The notes under the pieces are model-generated. The model was not told where the DNA came from, did no database searches, and saw only the letters and a program-made list of their open reading frames with translations. A stretch of DNA of 64,000 nt from Candidatus Bathyarchaeota archaeon (GTDB lineage Archaea > Thermoproteota > Bathyarchaeia > 40CM-2-53-6). Each line of letters opens with the position of its first letter. Position 1 is the first letter of the stretch. Shown in pieces: positions 1-27,735 of the stretch. The DNA lies in NCBI GenBank assembly GCA_963706285.1, contig CAVPLU010000009.1, forward strand, positions 1 through 64,000. Reading direction: 5' to 3'. A program made the position numbers and the translations under genes.

Positions 1-9
1 GGTGGTTGT

Positions 10-516
10 GTGCTTAAGGGTACACATCTAAGAAGGGTGAATGCCTATTGGCGGTGTTCTGTTCGCGTGTCAGTTCTCATTGTTGCGCATCTTGAGCGGA
101 TTGCTGTTAGGGAGCATTGGATGCTGTCAGATCTGGCTAGGATGCTGATCTGCCTAGGCGCGGCTGGCACCTATCTGAGGGTGGGCGATCCTGAGGTCTC
201 GGACAAGTTCGAATACGTTAGCGAGCTTGAGTGGAGCACTCACCGCATTGGCAACAAGCACAACTTTAGGTCGAGTGAGTCGTCGCCATCACGCCTTGCC
301 TCCCGCGGGCTGGCTAGATCAGAATTATTAGCTCTACGCCTACCAACGGGCCTCACAAGCCTCATCACCGCATATGCGAGGACTAGTGGGAGATCACGAA
401 ACGAAGCCTTGACGATGTTTCTGGAGCGCGGATTAATCATCTACTTGAAAATAGAAAAGATGCTACTAGAAACAATTCAATCAGTCGAAGCCGAGTCCGT
501 CAAGAGAATGAAATAA
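10..516 (+). CDS. Hypothetical protein with possible C-terminal ribbon-helix-helix domain
   Basis: 168-aa ORF; LALRLPTGLTSLITAYARTSGRSRNEALTMFLERG fits a beta-alpha-alpha RHH pattern; start uncertain. Confidence 0.45.
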   Translation: MLKGTHLRRVNAYWRCSVRVSVLIVAHLERIAVREHWMLSDLARMLICLGAAGTYLRVGDPEVSDKFEYVSELEWSTHRIGNKHNFRSSESSPSRLASRGLARSELLALRLPTGLTSLITAYARTSGRSRNEALTMFLERGLIIYLKIEKMLLETIQSVEAESVKRMK

Positions 517-1012
517 GACGAAGCAGTCGCTGGTGTATGATTTGCAGGAGCCGTTTCGTTGGATAGCTGATGTGGCAGTGATGGAGGCGTTCGAGTCGGG
601 AGTGTTGGATTTGCCGGATTTCTACTTCACAGGTGACGACTACAGGTACCGCTTCGAACCAGAAGCGAAGACAACGGTTCCTAGATTTGCTTCGTGAGCG
701 ATTCAATTCTGGGGTCAGGTACAAGGGGCGTGCTTTGAAGTGGGATACGGTTATCGAGCAGAAGAGCGGTTGAGCTTGGCCGCTACCTAGTCGGGTCGAA
801 ATGGTGGACTAGACTTCTCCGAGCCGTCTCCTAAGCTTGCGAAGAACGGATGACCTGTGACCTTCGGAAACGGATCCTCACTCTCTCAGTCTGACGCTCG
901 GAGACTTGGAATTGGAAAGAGTACGCTTCACTGTCTGCGCAAGAAGGCCATTGGCAGCCATGCTTTCAGAACATATGGAAGGACACGAAGGAAGCTCAAA
1001 TCAATTTCTTGA
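515..1012 (+). pseudogene. cas1: C-terminal remnant of a solo Cas1 (casposase-type) with C-terminal HTH; 5'-truncated and multiply frameshifted
   Basis: Manual translation across frames: KTKQSLVYDLQEPFRWIADVAVMEAFESGVLDLPDFYFTGDDYRYRFEPEAK / QRFLDLLRERFNSGVRYKGRALKWDTVIEQK / AVELGRYLVG / GLDFSEPSPKL / LRKRILTL / SQSDARRLGIGKSTLHCLRKKA. Contains the Cas1 SLxYDLxEPFR motif and an HTH tail like family 2 casposases. Absent from the ORF track. Confidence 0.85.
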
Positions 1013-1128
1013 TCCGAAGTGGATGACCAGCTCGCGTTCACGAACCTTCTAAATACGCAATCGAATGAATCCTAGGTGGGGAACAACCCTGCCTTTCCAA
1101 ATATTTGGCAGCTTTGAAGTGATCCGAT

Positions 1129-1437
1129 TTGACAGAAGACAAGGCTGATGAAATCGCAAAGCAGAATGAACTCATCATATCTCTACTCGGACGAATAGCC
1201 TTCAAGAACGACGAGCTGAAGGACATTGTAACGAAGGGAAGCAAGAAACCTGAGCAGATGATTCGGGCCTACAATCTTTGCGACGGGACGACCGGTGTGA
1301 CAGAAATCGCTGAAGAAGCTGGTGTCGCACAGCCTTCGTTGACGACTGCGGTAGAAAAGTGGGAAAGGTCGGGGATTATTCTCAAAAAGAAAAAGGGCAA
1401 AGAGGTATTGCCTCTGCGGCTCTTCGAGATCCGATAG
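1129..1437 (+). CDS. Small winged-HTH protein
   Basis: VTEIAEEAGVAQPSLTTAVEKWERSGII wHTH motif. Confidence 0.75.
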   Translation: MTEDKADEIAKQNELIISLLGRIAFKNDELKDIVTKGSKKPEQMIRAYNLCDGTTGVTEIAEEAGVAQPSLTTAVEKWERSGIILKKKKGKEVLPLRLFEIR

Positions 1438-1638
1438 GTGAATGCCATGGAAAAAGATACCTTGAGGACCTTCAGGTATAGCGTCTCAGAGATTCCGGAA
1501 GCTCTAGGGAAGTGTCTCTCATTGGTAAGTCAAGCGATGTGCCAATTACAAGATGCTGGGCTCGTCGCTGAAGAGAGAGTGGAGAAGACGAGATACTATG
1601 AGAGAGATTTAGATGAGGAGGTGACCGAAGATGTCTGA
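1438..1638 (+). CDS. Small ArsR-like wHTH protein, possibly degenerate
   Basis: SVSEIPEALGKCLSLVSQAMCQLQDAGLVAEERVEKTRYY; abuts both neighbours. Confidence 0.6.
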   Translation: MNAMEKDTLRTFRYSVSEIPEALGKCLSLVSQAMCQLQDAGLVAEERVEKTRYYERDLDEEVTEDV

Positions 1639-1828
1639 AAGAGAACTGAAGGAACTACAAGCAATGAAGAAACTCTTAGTCCTGCAACTATTGACTCAGG
1701 ATATCAAGGCGGATGCCATTGCGGACCTTCTAGGAATTGAACAGGGTGATTTCAGTCGAATGTTTCCGGCTCAGGAAGCTGTTGAAGCGAAAGGCGCGGA
1801 AGTAGCATGGTTGACCTCCAAGAATTGA
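1631..1828 (+). CDS. Small helix + HTH protein
   Basis: GGAGGTGA ribosome-binding site; KKLLVLQLL...ADAIADLLGIEQGDFSRMFP; true end probably FPVRKLLKRKARK* at 1805 after a frameshift. Confidence 0.65.
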   Translation: MSERELKELQAMKKLLVLQLLTQDIKADAIADLLGIEQGDFSRMFPAQEAVEAKGAEVAWLTSKN

Positions 1829-2607
1829 TAGTTAGAGGCAGAATGATTTTTGATGGTGCAAGCTAGACGACTCGAAGTTTTCGAGTTGCGAGTCACTGGG
1901 AGACCGACAAAGGAGATAGCTCACAAGTCTGGCAGAAGCTTGTCTGCCGTTGACCAGGATATAGAGAAGCTAAGCGATATGGAACTAATATTGAAAAAGA
2001 AAAATTCTAAAGGGGATGTGATCAAGAAAGACGGTAGCATAGTGTACGAAAAGAACCCAGTGATTAGGCACGTGCCCATTTCGTATTTCGGGGACGTAGC
2101 CAACACAAGCAAGCTCGTCAAGAGAGCTGTGAAAGGCCAAGGGAAAATCCCCAAACCTAACACTATCCACGTACCATCAGAAAACGAAATCCTCGACATA
2201 TGCAAGCAAGGAGAAGATCAGCTATACGAATTCAAGGCTCCGGGCGTGAGTGCAGACAAGATAACAAAAGAAATTGCGGATTTCTACACACGAAAAGTGG
2301 GGGAATAATCCTCTACGGGGTTGAGGACGACGGGAGCATTATCGGGGCAGATATGAGGAGACAAGACTTGGACCAGAAGATACAGAATTCTGTAAGGAAC
2401 ACGGTTTCCCCATCACCATCGATAGAAATCAAAGATCGGAAAGTGATGGGTTCCGCTGTGCTGCTGGTCGTTGTTCCTCCTTGGGATAGAAAGACCATTT
2501 ATCAAAACACCATGGATGGGAGATACTACATACGACGTGGCACAAACATCTTTGCACTAAGACCTGATGAAATAAGGAAACTCTCTCAAGGGGTTATCGT
2601 TGTGTGA
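1807..2607 (+). CDS. wHTH + Schlafen/AlbA_2 domain protein (frameshifted)
   Basis: ATG at 1807 joined to ORFs 1850-2308 and 2200-2607; HTH (TKEIAHKSGRSLSAVDQDI), then GEDQLYEFK...KEIA/GFLHTKSGGIILYGVEDDGSIIG...YYIRRG AlbA_2 motifs. Confidence 0.8.
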
Positions 2608-2608
2608 T

Positions 2609-2799
2609 TTGAGCGAAACCGAGGTTGGACATGTTGGTCAAGAAGCAGCAAGAAGAAGGAAAAGGAGAAGCTTGACGAAGCGACTGCCGCACGCATATTG
2701 AAGTCTGTCGGCCTCACGCCTACACAGGTTGCTTGAATACTTGGTAAGAAGTCAGCGCAAGACGCCTCTTCCTACCTTCACCCGAAAAAGAAGATGTAG
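2609..2799 (+). pseudogene. Degenerate small HTH gene, paralog of 3425-3676
   Basis: KLDEATAARILKSVGLTPTQVA*ILGKKSAQDASSYL versus IEILHASGLRPVEIARILGKS; internal stop and frameshift. Confidence 0.6.
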
Positions 2800-2857
2800 T
2801 CGCGTGAGTGGTACAATTGATGTAGGCGCCGTAATTTGAGCTCTTAGACTAGGACTA

Positions 2858-3409
2858 TCACATCGACGAAAGACCACGATGTATTGTCTTCCTTACAAGC
2901 GCAGCTTCTTTCACTGAATCAGATACTTGCCAGGCCAAATCGAGCATAACTGCCTCCTCCAGGGCTTCCTCGGAGCGGTAAGGTCCTCTGATCCTTATTC
3001 CCTGAGGTTTGACCTCTTCATCAAGGAAATTCTGCACTTCGCTTTTCCTTCCTCTTCTTTCAGCGTTTCTTGGCCTTCCTCGTCCACGTTTCCTCTTCAT
3101 CTGATAGACTAATGCAGGAAGATCTCTTGCTCTTGCCTCACGATATTCAGCAACTGTCCAATCAGACTTCTGACGGCCAAAAACTCCCACATAGATCGAA
3201 CACCCATCGATTTCGCGCTTCATGTCCTCTGGTATTACGTCTCCTCTCTCATCCTCGATGAGTATTCCCCTCATTATTTTTTCATCGACAAATCGCTCAT
3301 TATCGATCCTGGTCTTCAGAGTCCTTCTCAATGTTTGGAACTCTGTCTGAGCGGAACTTATGAAGACGGTGAATGGCCTCACACTATTTCCTGAGACCAA
3401 GCTGCGCAC
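2858..3409 (-). CDS. DUF4062 (TIR/NDT-like fold) domain protein
   Basis: FTVFISSAQTEFQTLR...IDGCSIYVGVFGRQKSDWTVAEYREARARDLPALVY pattern. Confidence 0.75.
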   Translation of the reverse strand: MRSLVSGNSVRPFTVFISSAQTEFQTLRRTLKTRIDNERFVDEKIMRGILIEDERGDVIPEDMKREIDGCSIYVGVFGRQKSDWTVAEYREARARDLPALVYQMKRKRGRGRPRNAERRGRKSEVQNFLDEEVKPQGIRIRGPYRSEEALEEAVMLDLAWQVSDSVKEAALVRKTIHRGLSSM

Positions 3410-3424
3410 TGCTCTTTTAGGAAA

Positions 3425-3676
3425 TCAAGTCTTGTTCTTTCTCGATTGAGCCTTCTTCATGAGGTTGAGCTGGACGCTGATGTTGGTCAGGGATTTCCCA
3501 AGTATTCTGGCGATCTCGACCGGCCTCAGGCCAGAGGCATGAAGAATCTCTATTCGTCTAGCGATAGAAAGAGGCTTTTCATCGACTCTAGATGTTTCCA
3601 GAAGAATGTTGATGATGGCATCGAGGCGCTTCGATAGTTGCCAAGTGTCGTCTTCTCTCTTGACCTTCGCTGGCAT
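3425..3676 (-). CDS. Small helix + HTH protein
   Basis: KRLDAIINILL...GLRPVEIARILGKSLTNISVQL. Confidence 0.75.
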   Translation of the reverse strand: MPAKVKREDDTWQLSKRLDAIINILLETSRVDEKPLSIARRIEILHASGLRPVEIARILGKSLTNISVQLNLMKKAQSRKNKT

Positions 3677-3698
3677 TGTGACACGTCCTCAATAGTGG

Positions 3699-3884
3699 CT
3701 ACTCTGGCTTTCTTACTCGGAGTAGGCTTACAACACGGTTGACCCTGTTAAGGTCACAGCCCGCGATCTCGCGAATCTTTGCTTGAGGTACCCTTGCGAG
3801 TCCCAATTGTACAATTAGTAGGTCTCTGAGCAATTCTGTCATTTCGTCTTTGGGCTTCTTAGTGCGTTTGGCCATAATCATCAC
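3699..3884 (-). CDS. Small helix + HTH protein
   Basis: LLRDLLIVQLGLARVPQAKIREIAGCDLNRVNRV; GGTG ribosome-binding site; resembles 1631-1828. Confidence 0.7.
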   Translation of the reverse strand: MMIMAKRTKKPKDEMTELLRDLLIVQLGLARVPQAKIREIAGCDLNRVNRVVSLLRVRKPE

Positions 3885-4006: not shown

Positions 4007-4140
4007 TGATGCGAGCATCGTAAATTGAACTCTTGATTGTGTGTGTGGGACCCTTGGTGCGGGCACCTGAATTTGAACCGTCGTTTTGGGTAATTGTGTG
4101 TGTGGTACGCTTGGTGCGAGCGTCCGGATTTGAACCGTCG
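4007..4140 (-). repeat. Three tandem copies of the tRNA-Gly-3'-like repeat (cores start at 4007, 4055, 4112)
   Basis: Minus strand of 4112-4136 = GGTTCAAATCCGGACGCTCGCACCA and of 4055-4079 = GGTTCAAATTCAGGTGCCCGCACCA, each followed by AG..(C)CACACACACAAT; 4007-4030 is more degenerate. Confidence 0.9.
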
Positions 4141-4267
4141 ATTTGCGTGTGTGCCAACGGCATAGGTGGAGACTGCCAGTGAAGAAAGATGGGGAAAGAA
4201 GTTTGCACGCACACGAAAGCTAATATCTCGATAGAAGTGACCGAATGACTGCCGTGGGGGTATCTGC

Positions 4268-7123: not shown

Positions 7124-7297
7124 AGATCAAGTTACCACGACAACATATGCCGACAGATTCTTGCGGCCAATGATGAATACGCCGCAACCGGACGTATGCA
7201 AGTGATCTCATTGCGTCGCATGAAGTCACTCAGCATAAGCATTAAACCGAGAAATGGGGCATACTGGCTTAAGGAAAGGCTTCCTGAAGGTGAGATC

Positions 7298-7735
7298 ATG
7301 AAACCTAGTGGTTCAGATACGAACGCGATTGTGGAGATGTTGCAAAAGGCCCCCCTGTGGTCGGGTCTCACCGAGAAGGAACTGAAGGTCATTGCACATT
7401 CATTCAAAGAGCTCAAGTATGAGAGCGGCGACATGATCGTGCGCAAAGGAGAGGCAGGCATCGGCTTCTATCTCATAGCGGAAGGCACCGTAGAGGTTCG
7501 ATCAGACGGAAAAGTCCTCTCTAAACTCGGACCCGGCCAGTTCTTTGGCGAGATGTCAATCTTGGACAATCAGCCAAGGTCGGCAGATGTTGTGGCACTT
7601 GAGCCGTCAAGGTGCCTTGCCTTGACTTCATGGAGCTTCAAGAGTATTGTTTCCAACCATCCAAAGATGGCGTTGAAGCTGCTGCAGGAATCCGTTCGTA
7701 GAATGAGTATGAATACTCAGACCCTTGGCAATTAG
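7298..7735 (+). CDS. Stand-alone cyclic-nucleotide-binding domain protein
   Basis: FFGEMSILDNQPRSADVVA phosphate-binding cassette; start moved to ATG 7298 after GGTGAG. Confidence 0.9.
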   Translation: MKPSGSDTNAIVEMLQKAPLWSGLTEKELKVIAHSFKELKYESGDMIVRKGEAGIGFYLIAEGTVEVRSDGKVLSKLGPGQFFGEMSILDNQPRSADVVALEPSRCLALTSWSFKSIVSNHPKMALKLLQESVRRMSMNTQTLGN

Positions 7736-7826
7736 TGAGGCATTGCCGAAGAACGGAGACACGTTCGTGCTCACTAAGGAAGCTGCTTCGAAAGATGAGC
7801 GAAGACTCGTGTGCTTCGTTACTTAG

Positions 7827-8546
7827 CTAGGATACATCTATGATCTGACCGTCTGTAGAGAAGATTGTTCTAGGGAAGATGCGGGTTACTTCGCGCTTCT
7901 GTCTGGACGTGAGTCTTGGGCTGTGGACTATCACGAGATTTCGCACGCCAGCTCTTTTTGCAGCCCTAGCGGCTTGGGTCGGGGTTGAATGTTTGAGGCG
8001 CCTCGCCACCGCAGCGTTGGTCTCTGCAGCCTCGTGGATGAGGTAGTCGGCTTTCTTTGCGATTTTGGACAAGTCGTCATGCATCGTGTCCCCGCTATAG
8101 ACCAGTGTCGTTCCATCGATCTCGATTCTGTAGACTGTGTCCGGAGGCGAATGAACACCTCTTGCTTTCGTGCAATTGAACGGAAGACCGGTCAGGTCCG
8201 GCAGGAAATTGAGAACCTTGGAGAGGTCTGCTCTGGGAAACAGCTTATGGTAGAGGCTGTAGACTAGCCTCTTTAGGCCCTTGGGCCCATAGATCTTCAA
8301 GATACCTTTGTCTTTGTAAAGAAGACATTCCGCGAGAAAAACAAGACCAACCACATGGTCGCCATGTGTGTGGCTGATAAGGGCATGATTCACATCGTTT
8401 GGGGAGTAGCCATTTGAGCGGAGAGCATACACGATCTGCGGAGGGCAGTCCAGTAGTATCCGTGTGCTGCCATCAATCAGGATACTCGTGGAGCCTCGAC
8501 CGTCGGAGCAGAATGAATCGCCAGTTCCAAGAAAGACAAGCCTCAT
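7827..8546 (-). CDS. MBL-fold hydrolase, RNase Z/BN-like (possible cNMP phosphodiesterase)
   Basis: FLGTG, HTHGDH, YSGDT, IHEA, HST motifs. Confidence 0.85.
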   Translation of the reverse strand: MRLVFLGTGDSFCSDGRGSTSILIDGSTRILLDCPPQIVYALRSNGYSPNDVNHALISHTHGDHVVGLVFLAECLLYKDKGILKIYGPKGLKRLVYSLYHKLFPRADLSKVLNFLPDLTGLPFNCTKARGVHSPPDTVYRIEIDGTTLVYSGDTMHDDLSKIAKKADYLIHEAAETNAAVARRLKHSTPTQAARAAKRAGVRNLVIVHSPRLTSRQKREVTRIFPRTIFSTDGQIIDVS

Positions 8547-8710
8547 TGAACTCCCGCCTCCGAACCCGTGTATCTTGCCCGACGATCTGGTAATGGGAGG
8601 ATAAGAGTTACTCAGAGACGGCGCTCACATCGTTATGTAACAGAGAGTTGTGTGTTCCTTGTATCGTCGAATGTTCGTTTGCTTTCATTGATAGGGACTT
8701 GTCTTCGGAA

Positions 8711-9277
8711 CTAGCTCGGCAGCCTAGTCACCTTGGGCGAGCGCTCGGAGAATCTGATGAAGATTGAATTGTTAGTGACCTCGATTTTCGGCTCAATTCC
8801 GAGAGTTTCACGTGTTACTGTCTCGTATACCCGCTTCAGCTGATTGGAGTACTTCATGCCGAAGTCATGTTCGAGGGTGATAGTGTAGTTGCCGTCCCTC
8901 TCGTCAACCTCGCATCGAGTAGTTCCAACATACTTGGATAGCCTCTCACAAAAGGCGCAGACTGTCGCTGGGTCGACGCGTTTGTACCAGAACCTAATCA
9001 TTTCAAGAAATGTGGAAGGAGCTTCTTCCGTGGCAGTTCGGTAGGTTTGTTCGTCCATCGCCTCAATCATGCGCTTGTAAGTGGAACGTGGGACTGTGAC
9101 GAACCCGAACTTCTGCGTGTAACGATCCCACTCTGCGTACTTGGTCAAGATTGAAACAACCAAGGCGCTTACGGTCCTGTTTTCTGCGTTCGCATCCTTT
9201 TGGAGAAGTTCATTGAGCTGCTTTGGTATCCTTACACCTCTAAGGACCGTCTGAGTCTTTCGATCGACCAAATTCAT
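8711..9277 (-). CDS. RHH-type regulator with C-terminal ligand-binding-like domain
   Basis: TVLRGVRIPKQLNELLQKDANAENRTVSALVVSILTKYAEWDRY; resembles a TACK-archaeal RHH family. Confidence 0.75.
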   Translation of the reverse strand: MNLVDRKTQTVLRGVRIPKQLNELLQKDANAENRTVSALVVSILTKYAEWDRYTQKFGFVTVPRSTYKRMIEAMDEQTYRTATEEAPSTFLEMIRFWYKRVDPATVCAFCERLSKYVGTTRCEVDERDGNYTITLEHDFGMKYSNQLKRVYETVTRETLGIEPKIEVTNNSIFIRFSERSPKVTRLPS

Positions 9278-9386
9278 CCGTTACGTACTACGCTGACTAA
9301 CATTGTAACACTTATGGTTCGATCTTACCGGTTTAGTTTCCCGAATTCGCGATGCCGAAGAGGCAAGAGAATCGAAACATCGTCGT

Positions 9387-9824
9387 TTATTCGCTTAGTG
9401 CGCGGTCAGTGTTGCGCAGTCGACGGACGAACTCCTGTAGCATTTTGACTGCGATTCTAGGTCGCTCCGATATGAGCGATTTGAAGGACCAAGCGGAAAG
9501 AAACAAAACTCGTGATGGTTCAATGGCTACAACGTCAGCTGATCTAGGCTGAGCGTCCACGACGGACATTTCCCCAAAGAATTGTCCGGGACCGAGTCTT
9601 GAGAGGGTATTTCCATTTGATCTAATCTCTACAGCGCCGTCCAAGACAAGGTAGAATCCGGCTCCTTCTTCTCCCTTCCTGACGATGGTGTCTCCGCTCT
9701 CAAACTTGTGCTGCTTGGCCATCTTTACGATCGCCTTGAAGTCTTGCTTGCCTATCCCAGACCATAGAGGCGACCTCTCGAGCATATCGATAACGGCATC
9801 ATTTTCCGAGCTCAGAAGTTTCAT
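9387..9824 (-). CDS. Stand-alone cyclic-nucleotide-binding domain protein (paralog of 7298-7735)
   Basis: FFGEMSVVDAQPRSADVVA; collinear similarity to the paralog. Confidence 0.9.
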   Translation of the reverse strand: MKLLSSENDAVIDMLERSPLWSGIGKQDFKAIVKMAKQHKFESGDTIVRKGEEGAGFYLVLDGAVEIRSNGNTLSRLGPGQFFGEMSVVDAQPRSADVVAIEPSRVLFLSAWSFKSLISERPRIAVKMLQEFVRRLRNTDRALSE

Positions 9825-9916
9825 CTTTCTAATCTCACGAACTTCAAATCTACTTGTCCTTTAATGTTTGCGACCAGGTGGAAGAATGAACGGATTCCGG
9901 AACGCATTCTCGTCTT

Positions 9917-11242
9917 TCATACTTCCGATGCTTCTTTTCGTCTGCGCTTCAGAAGTGGAATTGGCATTGCGATGAAACCTACGGCCATCAACGCGAAGTA
10001 TGCAACCGACGCAAGATCGACGACAATGTAGGGGCTTCTTGCCTGCAAGATTCTCCCGATGGCGCTGAGTGCGTCTGACGCCATATACTGGAATATGATA
10101 AGAGTCTGGTAGGCAAGGAAGAGGGCAAATGCGATAGATAGCACTGCAAACCAAGTTAGGAAGGCTCTCTTTCTGGGTTCAAATTTCTCTTCAACAGATC
10201 CTTTGCTTCCAAGGAATCTCGATCTTAGATGATCGAAAGCCTCCTTTCTCAGGTTCGGTATGTCGGCAAAGTCCATTAACGCATAATACCCGTCCGTCTC
10301 GATTAGAGGGACGAAGTTCCATAGCGTCCAATAGAAGCAGAAGAAGCCCATCATCTTGAGGATTTGACTCGGCCAAATCAGATTGGAGAGAACTAGGATC
10401 GAACCTGCTAAGAGCGTGGATAGTGGTCCGGAAAGTGAAACCATTATCCTCATCTTCTTCGGAAGCACCCACGTGTCGCTCGTGTCCACATAGAACATGG
10501 GACCGAAATAGTACAAACCCGTACCAACCTCTCCCGGCATCACATCCCACAATCCCCCATAGTATGCCAATGTCGCCCCGTGCGCGATCTCGTGAACCGC
10601 TAAGACAGGGAAAAGAAGCAGATAGTAGTAGAACATACCCACAATCGACGAGCCTAGGATCTCGAAATTCGCCCTGCTGAAGAGAATCGACAAGAAATCA
10701 GATGCAAGAAGTACCGTGCCTACAACAATCAGAATCAGAGTAGTCCACAGCCCAACACCTTGTACGAATAGTCTTACCAATCTCCTCAAGCCTAGGAAGA
10801 ATTGAGAGTTCCCCCACGTGATCGTGAAATCCAACTCGAACGCTGAAACGAACCTCAGACGCTTCGACGAAACAGCCTCAGGCTCCGTTCCGGCCAAGAG
10901 GCCTTCGTCGCCTAGGAAGGAGATAGCATCACGGACGGTCTCGTAAGACGTCTCAAACTTGTCCTTAGTCTCGTCTACTATTTGGTTGACCGTATGTTCG
11001 CCGTCGAGCATCCACCAAATGGTAACCGTGTGGAAGTCGACGTTGTACTCTTCGCCTGTAATCTTACTCTTGAGGACGTACGGTACGCCGCTGGCGGGGT
11101 CTCCTCCCATCAGCGAGGCGTGAGAGGATCGCATGGGTTTGTAGGTTCGGTCTTCCTGTACTCGATGCAGGATATCCTCTCTCGACCCTAGCAATTCAGA
11201 AGACACTCTTCCAGACCCGTTGCTGTTCGGATACGTTGTCAT
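9917..11242 (-). CDS. PqqD/RRE-like domain + M50 membrane zinc metalloprotease
   Basis: N-terminal IWWMLDGEHTVNQIV...VRDAISFLGDEGLL (PqqD-like); HEIAH and NFVPLIETDGY M50 motifs; multiple TM helices. Confidence 0.85.
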   Translation of the reverse strand: MTTYPNSNGSGRVSSELLGSREDILHRVQEDRTYKPMRSSHASLMGGDPASGVPYVLKSKITGEEYNVDFHTVTIWWMLDGEHTVNQIVDETKDKFETSYETVRDAISFLGDEGLLAGTEPEAVSSKRLRFVSAFELDFTITWGNSQFFLGLRRLVRLFVQGVGLWTTLILIVVGTVLLASDFLSILFSRANFEILGSSIVGMFYYYLLLFPVLAVHEIAHGATLAYYGGLWDVMPGEVGTGLYYFGPMFYVDTSDTWVLPKKMRIMVSLSGPLSTLLAGSILVLSNLIWPSQILKMMGFFCFYWTLWNFVPLIETDGYYALMDFADIPNLRKEAFDHLRSRFLGSKGSVEEKFEPRKRAFLTWFAVLSIAFALFLAYQTLIIFQYMASDALSAIGRILQARSPYIVVDLASVAYFALMAVGFIAMPIPLLKRRRKEASEV

Positions 11243-11308
11243 ATCGAACTCTCACGATTGTGACGTTGGCGAGTTTGAATCATCGCTTGTGGATATGACG
11301 GTCACACG

Positions 11309-11336
11309 AAAAAACGAGGGCGGAGCTGTTCCCTGC
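11309..11336 (-). terminator. Putative terminator after the peptide ORF
   Basis: Minus strand AGGG-N10-CCCT-CG-TTTTTT just after the TAG at 11339. Confidence 0.4.
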
Positions 11337-11338
11337 AC

Positions 11339-11442
11339 CTATTGGGGCGCTCCGCACACCCAAGCTGTGGTGCCTATTTGGGATGCAGTAGCACAGTCTT
11401 GCTTTTTCGCTTATGCAACTTCGAGATCTTTGGCTTAGCCAA
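11339..11442 (-). CDS. Putative 34-aa precursor peptide (needs one extra base in an A5 run)
   Basis: GGAGG ribosome-binding site, TTG start; reconstructed MAKPKISKLHKRKKQDCATASQIGTTAWVCGAPQ; TATA-like TTATAT upstream; directly 5' of the RRE-protease. Confidence 0.5.
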
Positions 11443-11705
11443 ACATTTTCGCCTCCTATTCTATCTCTAACACATACCCTAGGCGTACGAGCGGATATAA
11501 GATACGTTCACGTCGTTACCGTAAGTGCTACGATGTTAGACAACGTGGAAAAATGATGGATGAGTTTGGTCGACCGAACTGAATAGAATCTCCTTGAAGG
11601 CGTACTCCTTTTCAAACTCAAGTTGCGTCGGATTCGGATCAAGATCCAGTGTCTTTCTTAAACGGTTTTATCTTCGCATGAGCTCGAACACCTAGGGACC
11701 TCGGG

Positions 11706-13652
11706 TTGCCAGAGGACGGGCGTAGACTCGCTGCGATAATGTTCACTGACATGGTAGGCTACACCGCCCTTGGGCAGAGGAACGAATCGCTTTCGCTAGC
11801 CTTGGTTGAGGAACAGCGGAAGTTGATCAGGCCTATCCTCAGCAGGCATAACGGCAGGGAAGTCAAGACCATCGGGGACGCCTTCCTGGTCGAGTTTCCT
11901 AGCGCTTTGGACGGTGTGAGGTGCGCCTACGACATTCAAAGAGCGGCGCGTGAGTACAACATCTCAGCCCCCACCGAACAGAGAATCCACCTCCGGGTGG
12001 GGGTCCACCTCGGAGACGTCGTAGAATCCCAGGGCGACATCTCTGGGGATGCCGTGAACGTGGCTTCCAGGATAGAGCCGCTGGCGGAAGACGGAGGCGT
12101 GTGCATCACCCGGCAGGTCTTTGACCATGTACAGAACAAGTTCGAGCTGCCGCTCGTGAGCCTTGGGGCCAAGTCTCTGAAGAATGTGAGCGTGCCGATG
12201 GAAGTGTTCAGGATGGTGATGCCCTGGGAAGCGGAGAAAGCCACTTCTTCGTCTCAACTGGACAAGAGGCGGATTGCAGTCCTGCCTTTCGCAAACCTGA
12301 GTTCTGACCCTGAGGAGGGGTACTTTGCCGACGGAATGACCGAGGAGCTGATCACATCGCTTTCAGGGGTGAGGCAGTTGACAGTCATCGCAAGAACGTC
12401 CGTCATGAAGTACAAGGGATCCCAGAAGGGCGCATCGGAGGTGGGAAAGGAGCTGAACGTCGGCACCCTGATTGAAGGCAGCGTTAGAAAGGCAGGCAAC
12501 AGGGTGAGGATAACTGCGCAACTCATCGACACATCAACGGAGGGTCACCTTTGGGCTCAGAACTACGACAGGCAGTTGGAGGACGTCTTTGCGATCCAGT
12601 CAGAGATTGCTGAGAAGGTGGCCGGGGAGCTTAGGATTCGGCTGGTGGACTCCGAGAAGCGCGTGATCGAGAAGAAGGCTACAGAGAACACGGAGGCGTA
12701 CACATACTTCCTGCGGGGCAGAGAGCTGACTCGAGAGCAGACCGAACCCTCGCTTAGGAAGGCAGTCGGCCTCTTTGAAAGGGCCGTGGAGCTTGACCCT
12801 TATTTCGCGAAGGCGTACCTGGGACTAGCTGAATGCTTCATTACCCTCGCAAATGACGCTTACGAACCCTATGAGAAGTCAGTTCCCAAAGCGGAGCTGT
12901 CCGTGAAGAAGGCGCTTGAGCTGGACTCGGATCTGGCCGAAGCCTTGGCAGCACTCGCTATGATCCATTTTCTTGAGGACGATATAGTGGCTAGCGAAAC
13001 CGAAGCCAGGCGGGCGATCGAGTTGAGCCCTAGCATCCCCGAAGCGTACTACATTCTATCCAATGTAGCCTTACTGAAGGGGGATAGAGACGAGGGAATC
13101 AAAGCTGCCGAGGCCGCCTACCATTTGGACCCTGTCAGGCCACGATATGTTGAGAGGCTCGGGTGCCTCTATTTCTACATGGGAAGGGAAAGCGAGGCGC
13201 TACAGTTCTGGGAGAAGACGGCCGAGCTGGCTCCGGCCGGAACCTACAGGGACATGACCGAGTACTACATGTTCAAGGGCGACCACGAGAAGGCGAAGGA
13301 GTACTTCTCGATGGCCGAGAAGCTGGAGCCCACCAATTCTTGGGTGGCTTGGATGAAGGGATTTATTGCAGCACAGACGGGGGACAGGAACACCGCTTTG
13401 CAGGCCATCCGGAAAATCGAGGAAAAGTGGAGTGGTTCCCTGGACCTCAATAGCATCGGGTTCATCCACTACGCCTTGGGCGACTTGGATTCCTACTTTA
13501 CATACATGAACAGGGCTTCAGACCAACACTTGCTTCAATACGTATACCCGATGTACTGTCCGCTCTTTGCCAAGGGAAGAACCGACCCAAGGTATCAGGG
13601 GCTCCTGGACAAGCTCAGAGAAACGTTCGAGCGGGAAACGAAGTCAAGTTGA
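11706..13652 (+). CDS. Class III adenylate cyclase - TolB-like - TPR protein
   Basis: IMFTDMVGYT, VKTIGDAF, DISGDAVNVASRIE; IAVLPFANLS...YFADGMTEELI; TPR repeats. Confidence 0.92.
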   Translation: MPEDGRRLAAIMFTDMVGYTALGQRNESLSLALVEEQRKLIRPILSRHNGREVKTIGDAFLVEFPSALDGVRCAYDIQRAAREYNISAPTEQRIHLRVGVHLGDVVESQGDISGDAVNVASRIEPLAEDGGVCITRQVFDHVQNKFELPLVSLGAKSLKNVSVPMEVFRMVMPWEAEKATSSSQLDKRRIAVLPFANLSSDPEEGYFADGMTEELITSLSGVRQLTVIARTSVMKYKGSQKGASEVGKELNVGTLIEGSVRKAGNRVRITAQLIDTSTEGHLWAQNYDRQLEDVFAIQSEIAEKVAGELRIRLVDSEKRVIEKKATENTEAYTYFLRGRELTREQTEPSLRKAVGLFERAVELDPYFAKAYLGLAECFITLANDAYEPYEKSVPKAELSVKKALELDSDLAEALAALAMIHFLEDDIVASETEARRAIELSPSIPEAYYILSNVALLKGDRDEGIKAAEAAYHLDPVRPRYVERLGCLYFYMGRESEALQFWEKTAELAPAGTYRDMTEYYMFKGDHEKAKEYFSMAEKLEPTNSWVAWMKGFIAAQTGDRNTALQAIRKIEEKWSGSLDLNSIGFIHYALGDLDSYFTYMNRASDQHLLQYVYPMYCPLFAKGRTDPRYQGLLDKLRETFERETKSS

Positions 13653-14031
13653 TCGGCGGGCCCTCGGTGATTGATGCAGGTCTTGAGGCAAAGATGAATT
13701 GCGGTTGCCGGCATACCCGCCCGCGTCAGTCTTTCGTGAGCTACCAAACTTGAGCCGTTGCCCGGGGTAAACGATACTGGTAAACTGGTGCACGAATCCC
13801 TCCGCACTTCACACGGTAGGGTTGTTGGATGCGCTTTTCGCGATCGAAACAAAGACCCCAATCGAAAGCGGATTCGATTCTGCAGCCGATGTTGACAGCA
13901 TGAAATTGTTCAGGGAACGGAAGTAGGCTGCGTGTGACGAACGTATCGCTTAAGAATCTAGCGAGCGGTTGTTCTAGTGTGCGGGTTCACTGCTTTCTGC
14001 GTCTATTGGAGCGCCAAAGAGGGAGGGGAAG

Positions 14032-15977
14032 ATGAGCGGCGAGGAGAGAAGGCTGGCAGTCGTTATGTTCACGGATGTTGTTGGCTACAGTTCTCTGACT
14101 CAGAAGAACGAGCGGCTAGCACTTGAGCTGCTTGAGGAGCATAGGAAGATAGTTCGCCCAATAGTCGCCCGCCACAATGGTCGCGAGATAAAGACGATGG
14201 GTGACGCTTTCCTCATAGAATTTGGAAGCGCTCTCGAAGCAACACAATGCGCGATAGACATACAGAAGACGCTTCACGAACATAATCAAATTCAGGGGTC
14301 GAGAGAGGCATTCACCTCAGGATCGGAATTCACCTCGGCGACGTAGAACAGCGGCAGAGCGACGTTCTCGGAGATGCGGTCAACATTGCGTCGAGAATCG
14401 AGCCGTTGGCCGAGTCAGATGGGATCTGCATATCCGAGCAGGTCTACGATCAGGTCAGAAACAAGATCGACTGCCCAATCGAGAATCTTGGAGCGCGTCA
14501 ACTGAAGAACATAGACTACCCGATTGACGTGCATAGGATTAGATGGAATACGGACGAGGCCGCTACAATGAGCCTAGACAGAAAGCGAGTTGCCGTACTA
14601 CCATTCCTGAATATCAGCCCTGACCCAAACGACGCATACTTCGCGGACGGACTTACCGAGGAAATGATAGCGAGGCTTTCGACGGTTAGCGGGCTCAAGG
14701 TGATCGCTCGAACATCTGTAATGCGGTATAGAGGCACAGCCAAGAGCGTACGCGAGATAGGGAAAGAACTGACGTGTGGCTCAGTGCTTGAGGGAAGCGT
14801 CCGTAAGGCTGCAGACAGACTTCGAGTCACCGCACAACTCATTGATGCTACGACCGAGGAGCACCTTTGGGTACAGAATTATGATAGAGAGCTTGAGGAT
14901 GTCTTTGCGATTCAGACGGAGGTTGCGGAAAATGTGGCTGACGCTCTGAGGACGCAGCTACTGGACGAGGAAAGGCAACGGATTGAGAAGAAGCCTACCG
15001 GAGACATCGGTGCCTACACGTTCTATTTGAAGGGCAGATACTACTGGAACGAGAGAAACAGAGAATCACTGGAGAGAGCAATCAAATACTTTGAGGAAGC
15101 CATAAAGAGAGAGCCAGAGTCTGCACTGGCCTACTCAGGAATCGCTGACTCCTATATCGCGTTGGTGGATCATGAATACACCGCTCGGAGCGAGGGTTAC
15201 GCGAAGGCTAAGAGCGCGGCGACAAGAGCGCTTGAGCTTGATGATACACTGGCTGAAGCTCACACATCGCTCGGCAACACTCTGGCTTACGAATGGGATT
15301 GGGCCGGAGCTGAAGAGGAGTTCGCTAAGGCTCTCAGAAGCAATCCCAACTACGCGACAGCCCATCATTGGTACTCCATCCTCCTCGCATACCTTGGACG
15401 ACTGGACGAAGCAATCAAGGAATTGAAGATCGCAGAGGAACTTGATCCTCTCTCGCCAATGATACATGCGTACGGGGCTCTCGTCTACCTTGCCGCTAGA
15501 CAGTACGACATCGCAATGAAAGAGATTGACACAGCGTTGGAACTTGATCCGAATTTCGTGCCAGCACATGGCAATCGTATTGATGTCTATCTGGCGAAAT
15601 CAATGTACAAGGAGGCTCTGGCAGAAGCGGAGCTAGTGCTGCCCTTTTTGCAACCACTCTCAACCGCCTTGAAGGCAGAAGTCGGAGCCTATTATGCAAG
15701 GATAGGCCGGATTGAAGAGGCGAAGCAGCTTTTGCGGGAATGCGAAGAAGCTTCTGCTCATGAGCGTACTGAAGATTTGAACCCTCAATATTTAGCGATC
15801 ATTCATTGGAAGTTGGGTAACAAGGATCGAGCTTTTGAATGGCTTGAGAAAGCGTTCGAAGCCCGCACAGTCACTCCTTTCTGGGTCAGACTTTTCCCGT
15901 TCTTTGATGAACTAACCTCTGATCCTAGGTTTGATGAGCTCTTGAAGAAGTTCGTCCGCTCACTTGGCGGCACATGA
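14032..15977 (+). CDS. Second class III adenylate cyclase - TolB-like - TPR protein (frameshift near 14300)
   Basis: [10 protein letters not shown] and IKTMGDAF, then in the shifted frame [12 protein letters not shown]...[11 protein letters not shown] joining ORF 14406-15977. Confidence 0.9.
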
Positions 15978-19070: not shown

Positions 19071-19232
19071 TCACGCTATGGCTGACGGAGGTCTAGCTGA
19101 AGGCTCGTATGCTACGTACGTATTTTCGGCTACGCCTAGCAGTTCTGTCTCTTCAATCTCACCAGCTTCTTTCCCAATGTAACGTATTTGGCGTTTCTGG
19201 ATGTGGATGTGCCTTCTCTTCATCTTTCCCAT
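19071..19232 (-). pseudogene. Probable C-terminal remnant of a casposon-type family B DNA polymerase
   Basis: GKMKRRHIHIQKRQIRYIGKEAGEIEETELLGVAENTYVAY resembles, from memory, the GxxxR(R/K)HI...YIGKE...I(E/D)E tail of casposon PolB; no search run. Confidence 0.55.
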
Positions 19233-19278
19233 TGTGTGTGTGGTACACTTGGTGCGAGCGCCCGAATTTGAACTGTCG
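19231..19278 (-). repeat. tRNA-3'-like repeat copy
   Basis: 44 of 48 nt identical to 4093-4140 by manual alignment. Confidence 0.92.
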
Positions 19279-19456
19279 CCTTGTGGGTCTGCGTCAATAG
19301 TGCCACACATTCATGGTAGACGATGATCCGCGCCCCGGCGTTGATGAGAACCCTCAAACCGGCACCTCTTTCCCGGAGGGCGGCACCTCTTTGCAGAGTC
19401 TCTGGAGTCAGATTCCGATTCGATACTATTAACCGAGGGACAAGAGGATAGGATGG

Positions 19457-27392: not shown

Positions 27393-27624
27393 CTAGTTCA
27401 CCTCAGTTCTCTTGCGTATAGCTGCAGGCAGAGGAGTGGATGGCACTTGATAAAGAGCTAGGATGCTGAGGCAGCCTCTCTTCCATCAAAGAAAGAGTAG
27501 AGCTGAAAGACGAGAATTGGGTCATTTCATGTGGAAGTCTGCATGTGCAATTATGGCATGATTGGTTGTGGCTTTCTTGTGGGGTGCACACAAAATGACT
27601 AAACGACAGAATGACTAAACCTGC

Positions 27625-27735
27625 GGTTCAAATATTAATGCTCGCGCTAAGTGTACTGTGTGTGGGTCATATGACGCGCACACGTTCTCTTGGTGCGGGC
27701 GTCCGGATTTGAACTTTGATTGTGTGTGCGCACTC
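27625..27735. repeat. Inverted pair of tRNA-3'-like repeats plus a truncated variant
   Basis: Plus-sense 27625-27656 GGTTCAAATATTAATGCTCGCGCTAAGTGTAC; minus-sense 27691-27714 TGGTGCGGGCGTCCGGATTTGAAC; 27721-27735 TGTGTGTGCGCACTC. Confidence 0.85.

Follow-up and report, generated by a model that had tools for sequence, protein, structure and literature searches.

The decayed 3' end of a casposase gene behind a ribbon-helix-helix gene in a Bathyarchaeota genome

In this study we describe the remnant of a casposase gene near the left end of a 64,000-nucleotide stretch of DNA from a Candidatus Bathyarchaeota archaeon (assembly GCA_963706285.1), which we refer to as the window. The window covers bases 1 to 64 kb of contig C9 (CAVPLU010000009.1) in a 2.13-Mb metagenome-assembled genome (MAG) of 21 contigs, with 89% completeness and 7.5% contamination; its first base is also the first base of the contig, and the left flank lies beyond the contig. 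We read the remnant as the dead 3' part, about 40%, of a family-2-like casposase gene into which a ribbon-helix-helix (RHH) unit has been recombined, and whose parent element was probably polymerase-less. For this account as a whole we estimate a probability of about 0.78.

A three-frame translation of window positions 481-1110, with pieces anchored by script, recovers 158 codons of the casposase with five frame changes (Table 1). A preliminary description made from the sequence alone had counted about 160 codons over roughly five frameshifts; its count holds, and the peptides it quoted are recovered by translation. Piece 1 is the catalytic-helix region (SLVYDLQEPFRW...), and in an identity profile it is about 89-95% identical to a second copy on contig C10 of the same assembly. 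The active site of the Methanosarcina mazei casposase consists of E162, H232 and E247 according to PMC6977970. In an alignment of a full-length relative of 406 amino acids (P0010) with the structure 6OPM, the Glu codon at 548-550, within DLQEPFR, corresponds to E247, and this is the only one of the three active-site residues kept. The remnant begins past the catalytic His in the 6OPM alignment, the motif GFLHE is not in the window, and the N-terminal domain is lost. At 518-520, where the copies on contigs C10 and C14 have ATG in a DNA alignment, the window has ACG. Pieces 2 to 5 (666-888) cover the last part of the catalytic domain of Cas1 together with the linker, and contain four of the five frame changes. 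Piece 6 (887-1012) is the C-terminal helix-turn-helix (HTH) extension (QSDARRLGIGKSTLHCLRKKA...) with its stop codon; it aligns with residues ~370-405 of P0010 by tblastn, the same region is aligned in 6OPM, and Pfam gives a weak HTH_17 match there (E 0.14). Since the N-terminal domain, two of three catalytic residues and the start codon are gone and the frame changes five times, the window copy is inactive. It is a dead remnant of a member of the casposase family and not a working member.

Some of this decay can be dated to the present lineage by comparison with environmental contigs, which we took from four public metagenome runs (X1-X4). Most of those that align at window position 766 lack one base there (12 contigs from X1, 2 from X2, 1 from X3 and 7 from X4), and a minority, one to three per run, lack one base at 667-671. 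The window thus carries one-nucleotide insertions at 766 and at ~667-671 relative to these contigs, so that two or more of the frame changes represent genuine insertions in this lineage.

The remnant is a casposase-type Cas1. Piece 1 alone (window 512-694) passes the Pfam Cas_Cas1 model PF01867 (E=9e-6, 25.5 bits against a cut-off of 22.3, positions 224-276 of 283 of the profile), and a genome-wide scan with PF01867 gives the same place. With P0010 as the tblastn query, residues 246-405 align to window 515-997 at E=1e-31, and five full-length relatives match the window in this way. The C10 paralogue, which keeps an open reading frame (ORF) of 139 codons, has 272 relatives at E<=0.001 among 1.84 billion representative proteins; the full-length proteins among them have 375-410 amino acids, and the paralogue matches positions ~245-365 of these. 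Compared with the PDB, the 139-amino-acid paralogue finds 6OPM as its sole match (E=1.7e-18) and no CRISPR Cas1 at E<=10. P0010, which is 58% identical to the C10 paralogue, aligns to 6OPM almost end to end (residues 4-404 against 18-410 of the chain, HTH included, E=7.9e-79), whereas its best CRISPR Cas1 structure reaches 4e-24. The structure 6OPM is cited, in two mentions, in the paper on the M. mazei casposase (PMC6977970), and the same paper describes family 2 casposases as having a C-terminal HTH of 60-70 residues added to Cas1. P0010 and a second intact casposase (locus L055) pass the generic cas1 model TIGR00287 of NCBIfam only; all eight subtype models stay far below their cut-offs.

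The remnant was also placed in a phylogeny with 35 rows. Of these, 12 are full-length proteins of related genomes, 16 come from the protein library and 5 are same-order Cas1 proteins; the other two are the fragments of the window and of C10, the former being read through with X at every break. Both fragments fall inside a 15-row clade of ~405-amino-acid HTH proteins (SH-aLRT 99), and the five same-order Cas1 proteins, which adjoin cas2 and/or cas4 by Pfam, form a separate clade with a support of 97. Tandem Repeats Finder reports seven rows in the window, none of them resembling a CRISPR array. No Cas2 and no complete Cas1 were found in the assembly, where all Cas1 matches are remnants. The 6OPM match, the tree, the HTH and the missing Cas2 and array together speak against the CRISPR type. 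The preliminary description had proposed a casposase-type Cas1 and reported no array or other cas gene in the window, and its reading is confirmed: Pfam match, 6OPM match, tree placement and C-terminal HTH agree, and the remnant neither groups with CRISPR-associated Cas1 nor lacks a Cas1 match, the two outcomes set against a casposase. Its background statement that family 2 casposases combine Cas1 with a C-terminal HTH and integrate at tRNA 3' ends is found in PMC6977970 and PMC6563490, and the HTH is recovered in the remnant.

The position at which the casposase sequence breaks off can be fixed exactly. Environmental contigs of all four runs match window 516-800 in large numbers, and before 516 they translate as GFLHE(T)SDY, the normal upstream casposase sequence. 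As these contigs stay casposase upstream while the window turns to an RHH gene, the break lies exactly at 516/517. The abrupt start noted earlier, at the stop of the preceding ORF, is thereby fixed: the TAA stands at 514-516. A contig from X3 (record 16) is collinear with window 516-786 and 901-1582, with window 787-900 replaced by 113 other letters; it extends at least 407 nucleotides upstream of 516, and the end adjoining 516 reads as casposase. A contig from X1 (record 7) is collinear with 901-1457 and 1530-2400. These collinear contigs imply that the genes at 1129-2400 are natural neighbours of the casposase, and this agrees with in-place decay of a former element.

What replaces the casposase upstream of the break is the greater part of a repeated unit. 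Its RHH ORF (10-516, 168 amino acids) is intact, has two RHH-like halves and ends with the TAA named above; Pfam gives a weak Arc-like match only (E 0.097). The RHH-casposase junction is present three times in the MAG, on C9, at C10:48372-49389 and at C14:88924-89602. By BLASTN, window 1-933 is 84% identical to C10:48470-49389 and window 1-594 is 92% identical to C14:89021-89602, and C10:48372-49051 and C14:88924-89602 are 94% identical to each other. Each copy consists of about 100 nucleotides, the RHH ORF and then the start of a casposase tail, so that the left edge of the unit lies about 100 nucleotides before the RHH gene. In the C10 and C14 copies an ATG stands exactly at the junction, 1-4 nucleotides past the RHH stop; in C10 it opens the 139-amino-acid ORF, which is frameshifted ahead of the HTH, and C14 shares the unit only to position 594, keeping ~26 casposase codons. 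To the left of the C10 and C14 copies no tRNA was found. Past the RHH unit, at C14:89876-93188, one gene resembles a Vsr-type endonuclease and another a broken cytosine methyltransferase, judged from sequence only; two large genes there are unnamed.

The two sides of this junction have different histories. Between the RHH parts the synonymous divergence (dS) is 0.11-0.20, with a ratio of non-synonymous to synonymous divergence (dN/dS) of 0.07-0.25 for C9 against C10 and of 0.04-0.25 among the three copies. For the casposase part of C9 and C10, in 138 codons, dS is ~1.5, meaning that synonymous sites are saturated, and identity is ~95% to about position 655 and 60-75% past there. Casposase parts that are anciently diverged behind a shared junction indicate that the junction was spread by recombination. 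On the simplest reading of these sequences, the tails derive from separate working casposase genes that diverged long ago, and recombination in the most conserved part of their coding sequence attached the RHH unit to them. The double-RHH gene itself is, judged by its substitution pattern, still under selection. Its linker (window 205-315) is read in another frame than in the C10 and C14 copies, with indels of 1, 6 and 5 nucleotides. That the ORF is open in all three copies despite these indels suggests selection on both halves. RHH homologues are found in six of nine other genomes of the genus, and no RHH gene adjoining a casposase piece was found outside this assembly (10 genomes of the genus and 20 further loci).

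Casposase tails are not limited to this junction. In the assembly they occupy six places (C9, C10 twice, C14, C4 and C21), none of which reaches a residue before 213; besides the three junction copies these are C10:248702-248806 (residues 218-252), C4:293551-293694 (residues 351-398) and a 24-codon remnant detected by tblastn at the end of contig C21. Matches to P0010 are also found in 24 of 61 related genomes. After five rows of Cas1 linked to cas2 or cas4 were dropped and four split pieces merged, 58 places remain, of which 5 begin at residue 10 or before and 53 are partial. A single partial match lies wholly within residues 1-150; the other 52 begin at residue 119 or later, 33 of the partial matches reach at least residue 397, and 12 begin within residues 240-265. 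At two junctions that we read directly (loci L077 and L076), unrelated sequence with stop codons stands right ahead of SLAYDLQEPFRW or VLYDLQEPFRW. We treat a hot spot as a lead, because alignment starts are biased towards conserved motifs and the related genomes are not independent. Conceivably the casposase gene itself contains a tRNA-like pseudo-target, with its GLEPS codons set against the T-arm. Directly past the stop of an acyl-CoA dehydrogenase-like gene, casposase tails stand both at C10:248500-248810 and, in a different genome of Bathyarchaeia, at L080:1630-1990; the two tails differ, covering residues 218-252 in this assembly and ~258-406 in L080.

The sequence of events was then probably as follows. 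An element with a casposase and small HTH genes (now 1129-3884) would have integrated beside a tRNA-3'-end-like site (now 4036-4145), as in intact relatives. Recombination inside the most conserved coding stretch would then have swapped the upstream part for the ~680-nucleotide unit; here the mosaic is what we observe and the mechanism is what we propose for it. The same RHH junction would have spread to at least three loci with anciently diverged casposase tails, and the tail in the window then decayed by the small insertions and deletions that it carries today.

Downstream of the remnant, the genes between 1129 and 3884 (Table 1), small winged-HTH genes among them, are probably part of the same former element, and comparison of the ORFs in this interval with those of the relatives' 13 loci gave no protein similarity. 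The Schlafen/AlbA_2 region has small indels in environmental contigs too. Two tandem repeats follow 3 kb downstream of the remnant, each consisting of a tRNA 3' end from T-loop to CCA, ~6 nucleotides and CACACACAC, in the same orientation as in intact relatives. Such units of ~57 nucleotides are often tandem and recur at window 19231-19292 and 27620-27716, at C10:50873-51023 and C16:58003-58113, and elsewhere. A 26-nucleotide pattern with up to six mismatches finds 31 sites in the assembly; two are in tRNA genes predicted by ARAGORN and two more have ends like those of real tRNA genes. Real tRNA genes lack the CACACAC tail of these units, and no tRNA gene was found in the window. The units are probably scars of repeated integration, and the pair at 4036-4145 is likely the integration-site scar that bounds the former element. 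Nearly all tRNA genes of the whole assembly have introns: ARAGORN counts 3 without and 26 with intron search, and Rfam gives 17 tRNA matches with spans of 57-129 nucleotides against a model of 71 positions. Further along the window, at 7196-15977, there is a cluster with two cyclic-nucleotide-binding proteins, a metallo-beta-lactamase-fold protein and adenylate/guanylate cyclase-TPR proteins, one of them split.

Table 1. Coordinates of the remnant, its neighbours and the mini-MCM-like genes of intact loci. Positions are those of the window unless a locus is named.
Feature	Position	Strand	Remarks
RHH unit, right-hand ~85% of ~680-nt repeat	1..516	+	first ~98 nt of the unit off contig
Casposase (Cas1-solo) 3' remnant	517..1012	+	residues ~246-405 of ~406; six pieces, five frame changes
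Piece 1	524-670	+	frame 2, 49 codons, QSLVYDLQEPFRW...EPEAK
Piece 2	666-767	+	frame 3, 34 codons, ends GVRYKGRALKWDTVIEQKS
Piece 3	766-798	+	frame 1, 11 codons, AVELGRYLVGS
Piece 4	803-838	+	frame 2, 12 codons, GGLDFSEPSPKL
Piece 5	856-888	+	frame 1, 11 codons, CDLRKRILTLS
Piece 6	887-1009	+	frame 2, 41 codons, QSDARRLGIGKSTLH..., stop codon 1010-1012
HTH_47 gene	1129-1437		Pfam
Split Schlafen/AlbA_2 gene	1850-2607		Pfam; frameshift into ORFs 1850-2308 and 2200-2607
DUF4062 gene	2858-3409	-	Pfam
Two tandem 57-nt repeats	4036..4145	-	tRNA 3' end (T-loop to CCA), then CACACACAC
F3 mini-MCM-like gene	L055:6831-7655	-	
F3 mini-MCM-like gene	L018:12517-13404		
F3 mini-MCM-like gene	L021:7627-8511	-	
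F3 mini-MCM-like gene	L017:6705-7553	-	
F3 mini-MCM-like gene	L060:6266-7060	-	

The intact relatives give an idea of what the parent element may have looked like. Near-full casposase matches occur in 13 of 105 genomes of the order, and 17 of the 24 places concerned are full-length. We surveyed the neighbourhoods of 13 loci with a full-length casposase gene. In 10 of them a tRNA-3'-like motif is found on the same strand as the casposase gene and 0.1-7.9 kb downstream of it, and 7 share a set of small genes with divergent transcription. The largest gene of this set, F3, encodes ~275 amino acids with Walker A and B motifs and is found by profile in 6 of the 13 loci. Its relatives number more than 300, all unnamed and lacking a Pfam domain, and include one from Aenigmatarchaeota. 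Its predicted fold has a pLDDT (confidence score) of 83.6, a first fold from five sequences having been unusable (pLDDT 50.7). The Foldseek matches listed against the PDB are all MCM ATPase chains (best E 1e-7, TMq 0.52-0.68), and a PDB profile search gave no match. On this model F3 is predicted to fold like an MCM AAA+ domain, as a P-loop protein with a winged helix added. Broken pieces of F3 are present in this assembly at C10:145719-146224. Families F2, F4 and F5 and the gene just upstream of the casposase have no informative match in Pfam, PHROGs or NCBIfam. In L055, five iteron-like repeats (ATGTnnTCnAACATAT) spaced by 16 nucleotides stand with palindromes just past the mini-MCM-like gene (L055:6315-6484). 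These repeats may be a replication origin. Past the casposase stop codon no shared sequence was seen among 13 downstream stretches, 12 of them of full length.

A DNA polymerase is missing from this picture. No PolB was found with Pfam in 30 scanned ORFs of the window between 1129 and 32022, nor any polymerase in 88 ORFs around 8 intact loci. In the assembly, PF00136 matches occur on C3, C4 and C6, with none for PF03175; the C6 gene is a split PolB-like gene, and the same split pattern is seen in two other genomes, away from casposases. Among the 17 full-length casposase genes of 10 whole genomes, one has a PF00136 match within 20 kb and the next nearest is 25 kb away. The single match is a polymerase of ~870 amino acids that 4 of the 10 scanned genomes, as well as this assembly, also hold elsewhere. 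The parent of the remnant was probably a polymerase-less casposase element as in these related genomes, and less probably a polymerase-bearing casposon.

The alternative that survives best, and which we consider unlikely, is that the remnant derives from a canonical family 2 casposon with PolB, terminal inverted repeats (TIRs) and a target-site duplication (TSD) at a tRNA 3' end, the rest of which has been deleted or lies off the contig. The casposase type fits family 2 in its HTH and its best match, 6OPM; family 2 casposons insert at tRNA 3' ends according to PMC6977970 and PMC6563490; and the genome has both the tRNA-3'-like repeats 3 kb downstream and the C6 split PolB-like gene. However, none of the 17 full-length relatives adjoins a casposon-style PolB, the scanned ORFs of the window and those of the eight intact loci have none, and the C6 type of split PolB recurs away from casposases. 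In addition, the repeats duplicate about 45 nucleotides of tRNA-like sequence, much longer than the 14-bp TSD of M. mazei. The preliminary suggestion that a decayed casposon contributed to this region therefore stands in part, since the casposase is the one defining casposon feature found: the casposase remnant speaks for it and the tRNA-3'-like repeats downstream give an indirect link to a tRNA, while PolB is missing from the scanned ORFs, no TIR was found and the 5' part has been replaced at the RHH junction.

There are several observations that weigh against our account of a dead casposase tail from a polymerase-less element. Firstly, the absence of PolB is weak evidence for several relatives because their contigs are short, and "polymerase-less" is well supported only in the near-complete genomes G076, G100 and G079. 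Secondly, no convincing TIR was found in three intact loci, the best being 30 nucleotides at 83% in L060. As the left side of the window is off C9, a polymerase gene, a TIR or the 5' part of the casposase could sit on another contig. Thirdly, "family-2-like" rests on 6OPM and the HTH, as the tree is without named reference casposases of families 1-5. Fourthly, some copies of the RHH unit may stem from co-binned strains: C14:93401-96203 is 80% identical to C9:19291-22120 (the same positions in the window), and contig C21 is ~94% identical to C3:122763-128717, a part of C3. Such contig-to-contig duplications at 80-94% identity may be paralogous islands or co-binned strains, which would fit the 7.5% contamination. 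And finally, the low dN/dS of the C9 and C10 tails could mean long selection on a truncated gene.

This last point raises the question whether the truncated casposase is, or was, a working protein that regulates or blocks casposase integration, by analogy with truncated transposases. Several results would agree with it. An ATG stands right at the junction in C10 and C14, and C10 stays open for 139 codons, the C9-C10 tails have a dN/dS of 0.11, roughly two in three of the larger C-terminal pieces found in relatives have no stop codon (read by eye from a table), and many proteins of 140-240 amino acids are among the best 150 of the 272 relatives, though many such short library proteins may be cut by contig ends. 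Against this, the frame changes five times in the window copy, which also lacks the ATG, C10 is frameshifted ahead of the HTH, C14 keeps only ~26 codons, and the RHH junction was not found outside the assembly. The drop in identity at ~655 moreover points to different long-diverged genes, and tails of such origin explain the low dN/dS without selection on the truncated form. Selective keeping of a truncated gene may occur in the family; it does not hold for the window copy, for which we set this explanation aside on its mosaic identity profile, and overall we think it very improbable. That a CRISPR-Cas locus was lost and left the remnant behind as its decayed cas1 has a negligible chance of being true: Pfam and NCBIfam do call the domain Cas1, but the C10 paralogue matches the casposase structure and no CRISPR Cas1 at E<=10, the tree separates the two kinds, the HTH is present, and neither a Cas2 in the assembly nor an array in the window was found.

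Comparison with known systems places the remnant closest to the family 2 casposase of M. mazei (6OPM, PMC6977970), with which the intact relatives align over their full length, including the HTH of 60-70 residues. The remnant keeps the DLQEPFR helix with the third active-site residue, and like the M. mazei element, which PMC6977970 places at the 3' end of a tRNA-Leu gene, it lies near sequence that resembles a tRNA 3' end. Unlike the M. mazei enzyme, the window copy retains no more than the final ~160 residues out of ~406, with frameshifts and no start codon, and the intact Bathyarchaeia relatives have neither an accompanying PolB nor, as far as found, a TIR of the 31-bp type. Two other archaeal casposons of family 2, NitNCS1-C1 of Ca. 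Nitrosotalea okcheonensis and AciBoo-C1 of Aciduliprofundum boonei, have an HTH-bearing Cas1 and small HTH proteins as here, and are inserted in a tRNA gene as described in PMC6563490, where a family 2 casposon in a tRNA-Pro gene is reported for Thaumarchaeota. The same source gives both elements PolB and an HNH nuclease, and neither of these was found here.

The putative family 5 casposases from hot springs, mostly without DNA polymerase according to PMC9755687, likewise represent casposase-like Cas1 in polymerase-less elements, which their authors read as non-self-replicating transposons. By the description in that paper family 5 lacks the C-terminal HTH, and this description sets it apart from the Bathyarchaeia proteins, which have the HTH and are closest to family 2. 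Inactivated copies at integration hot spots, as here, are known from the remnant casposons of Methanolobus psychrophilus R15 (PMC4046053) and from the tandem arrays of M. mazei; in contrast to both, our remnant is joined to an unrelated RHH gene that appears to be still selected, with the junction in three loci. CRISPR-associated Cas1 (Archaeoglobus fulgidus, 4N06) belongs to the same PF01867 fold family, but is a much weaker match, has no HTH and shows the linkage to cas2 and cas4 that the casposase clade lacks. The review PMC6452270 describes a DNA polymerase as invariable in casposons. In the literature searched, casposons and Bathyarchaeia are not named together in titles or abstracts; three papers name both in their text. 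Nor was anything closer found on casposons that have an MCM or lack PolB. The polymerase-less casposase elements of Bathyarchaeia are probably undescribed so far.

Taken alone, the remnant is an ordinary fossil of a mobile-element integrase and leaves the host biology unchanged. It does point to many intact Bathyarchaeia casposases of ~405 amino acids close to the M. mazei enzyme. We tentatively suggest, at somewhat less than even odds, that these belong to an undescribed Bathyarchaeia element with an HTH-bearing family-2-like casposase, no nearby DNA polymerase gene and often a mini-MCM-like module, lying beside tRNA-3'-end-like repeats, and that its conserved catalytic-helix stretch is a recombination hot spot which litters genomes with 3' tails joined to foreign genes. 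If this is true, casposases can exist apart from self-synthesizing transposons, and this matters for ideas on how CRISPR could have captured one. Polymerase-less elements would widen the kinds of element known with a Cas1-type integrase, and would give natural casposases that work without a polymerase, the state assumed en route to the CRISPR adaptation module. The 3' tails and mosaic junctions would furthermore mean that a conserved coding stretch can act as a recombination site between mobile elements.

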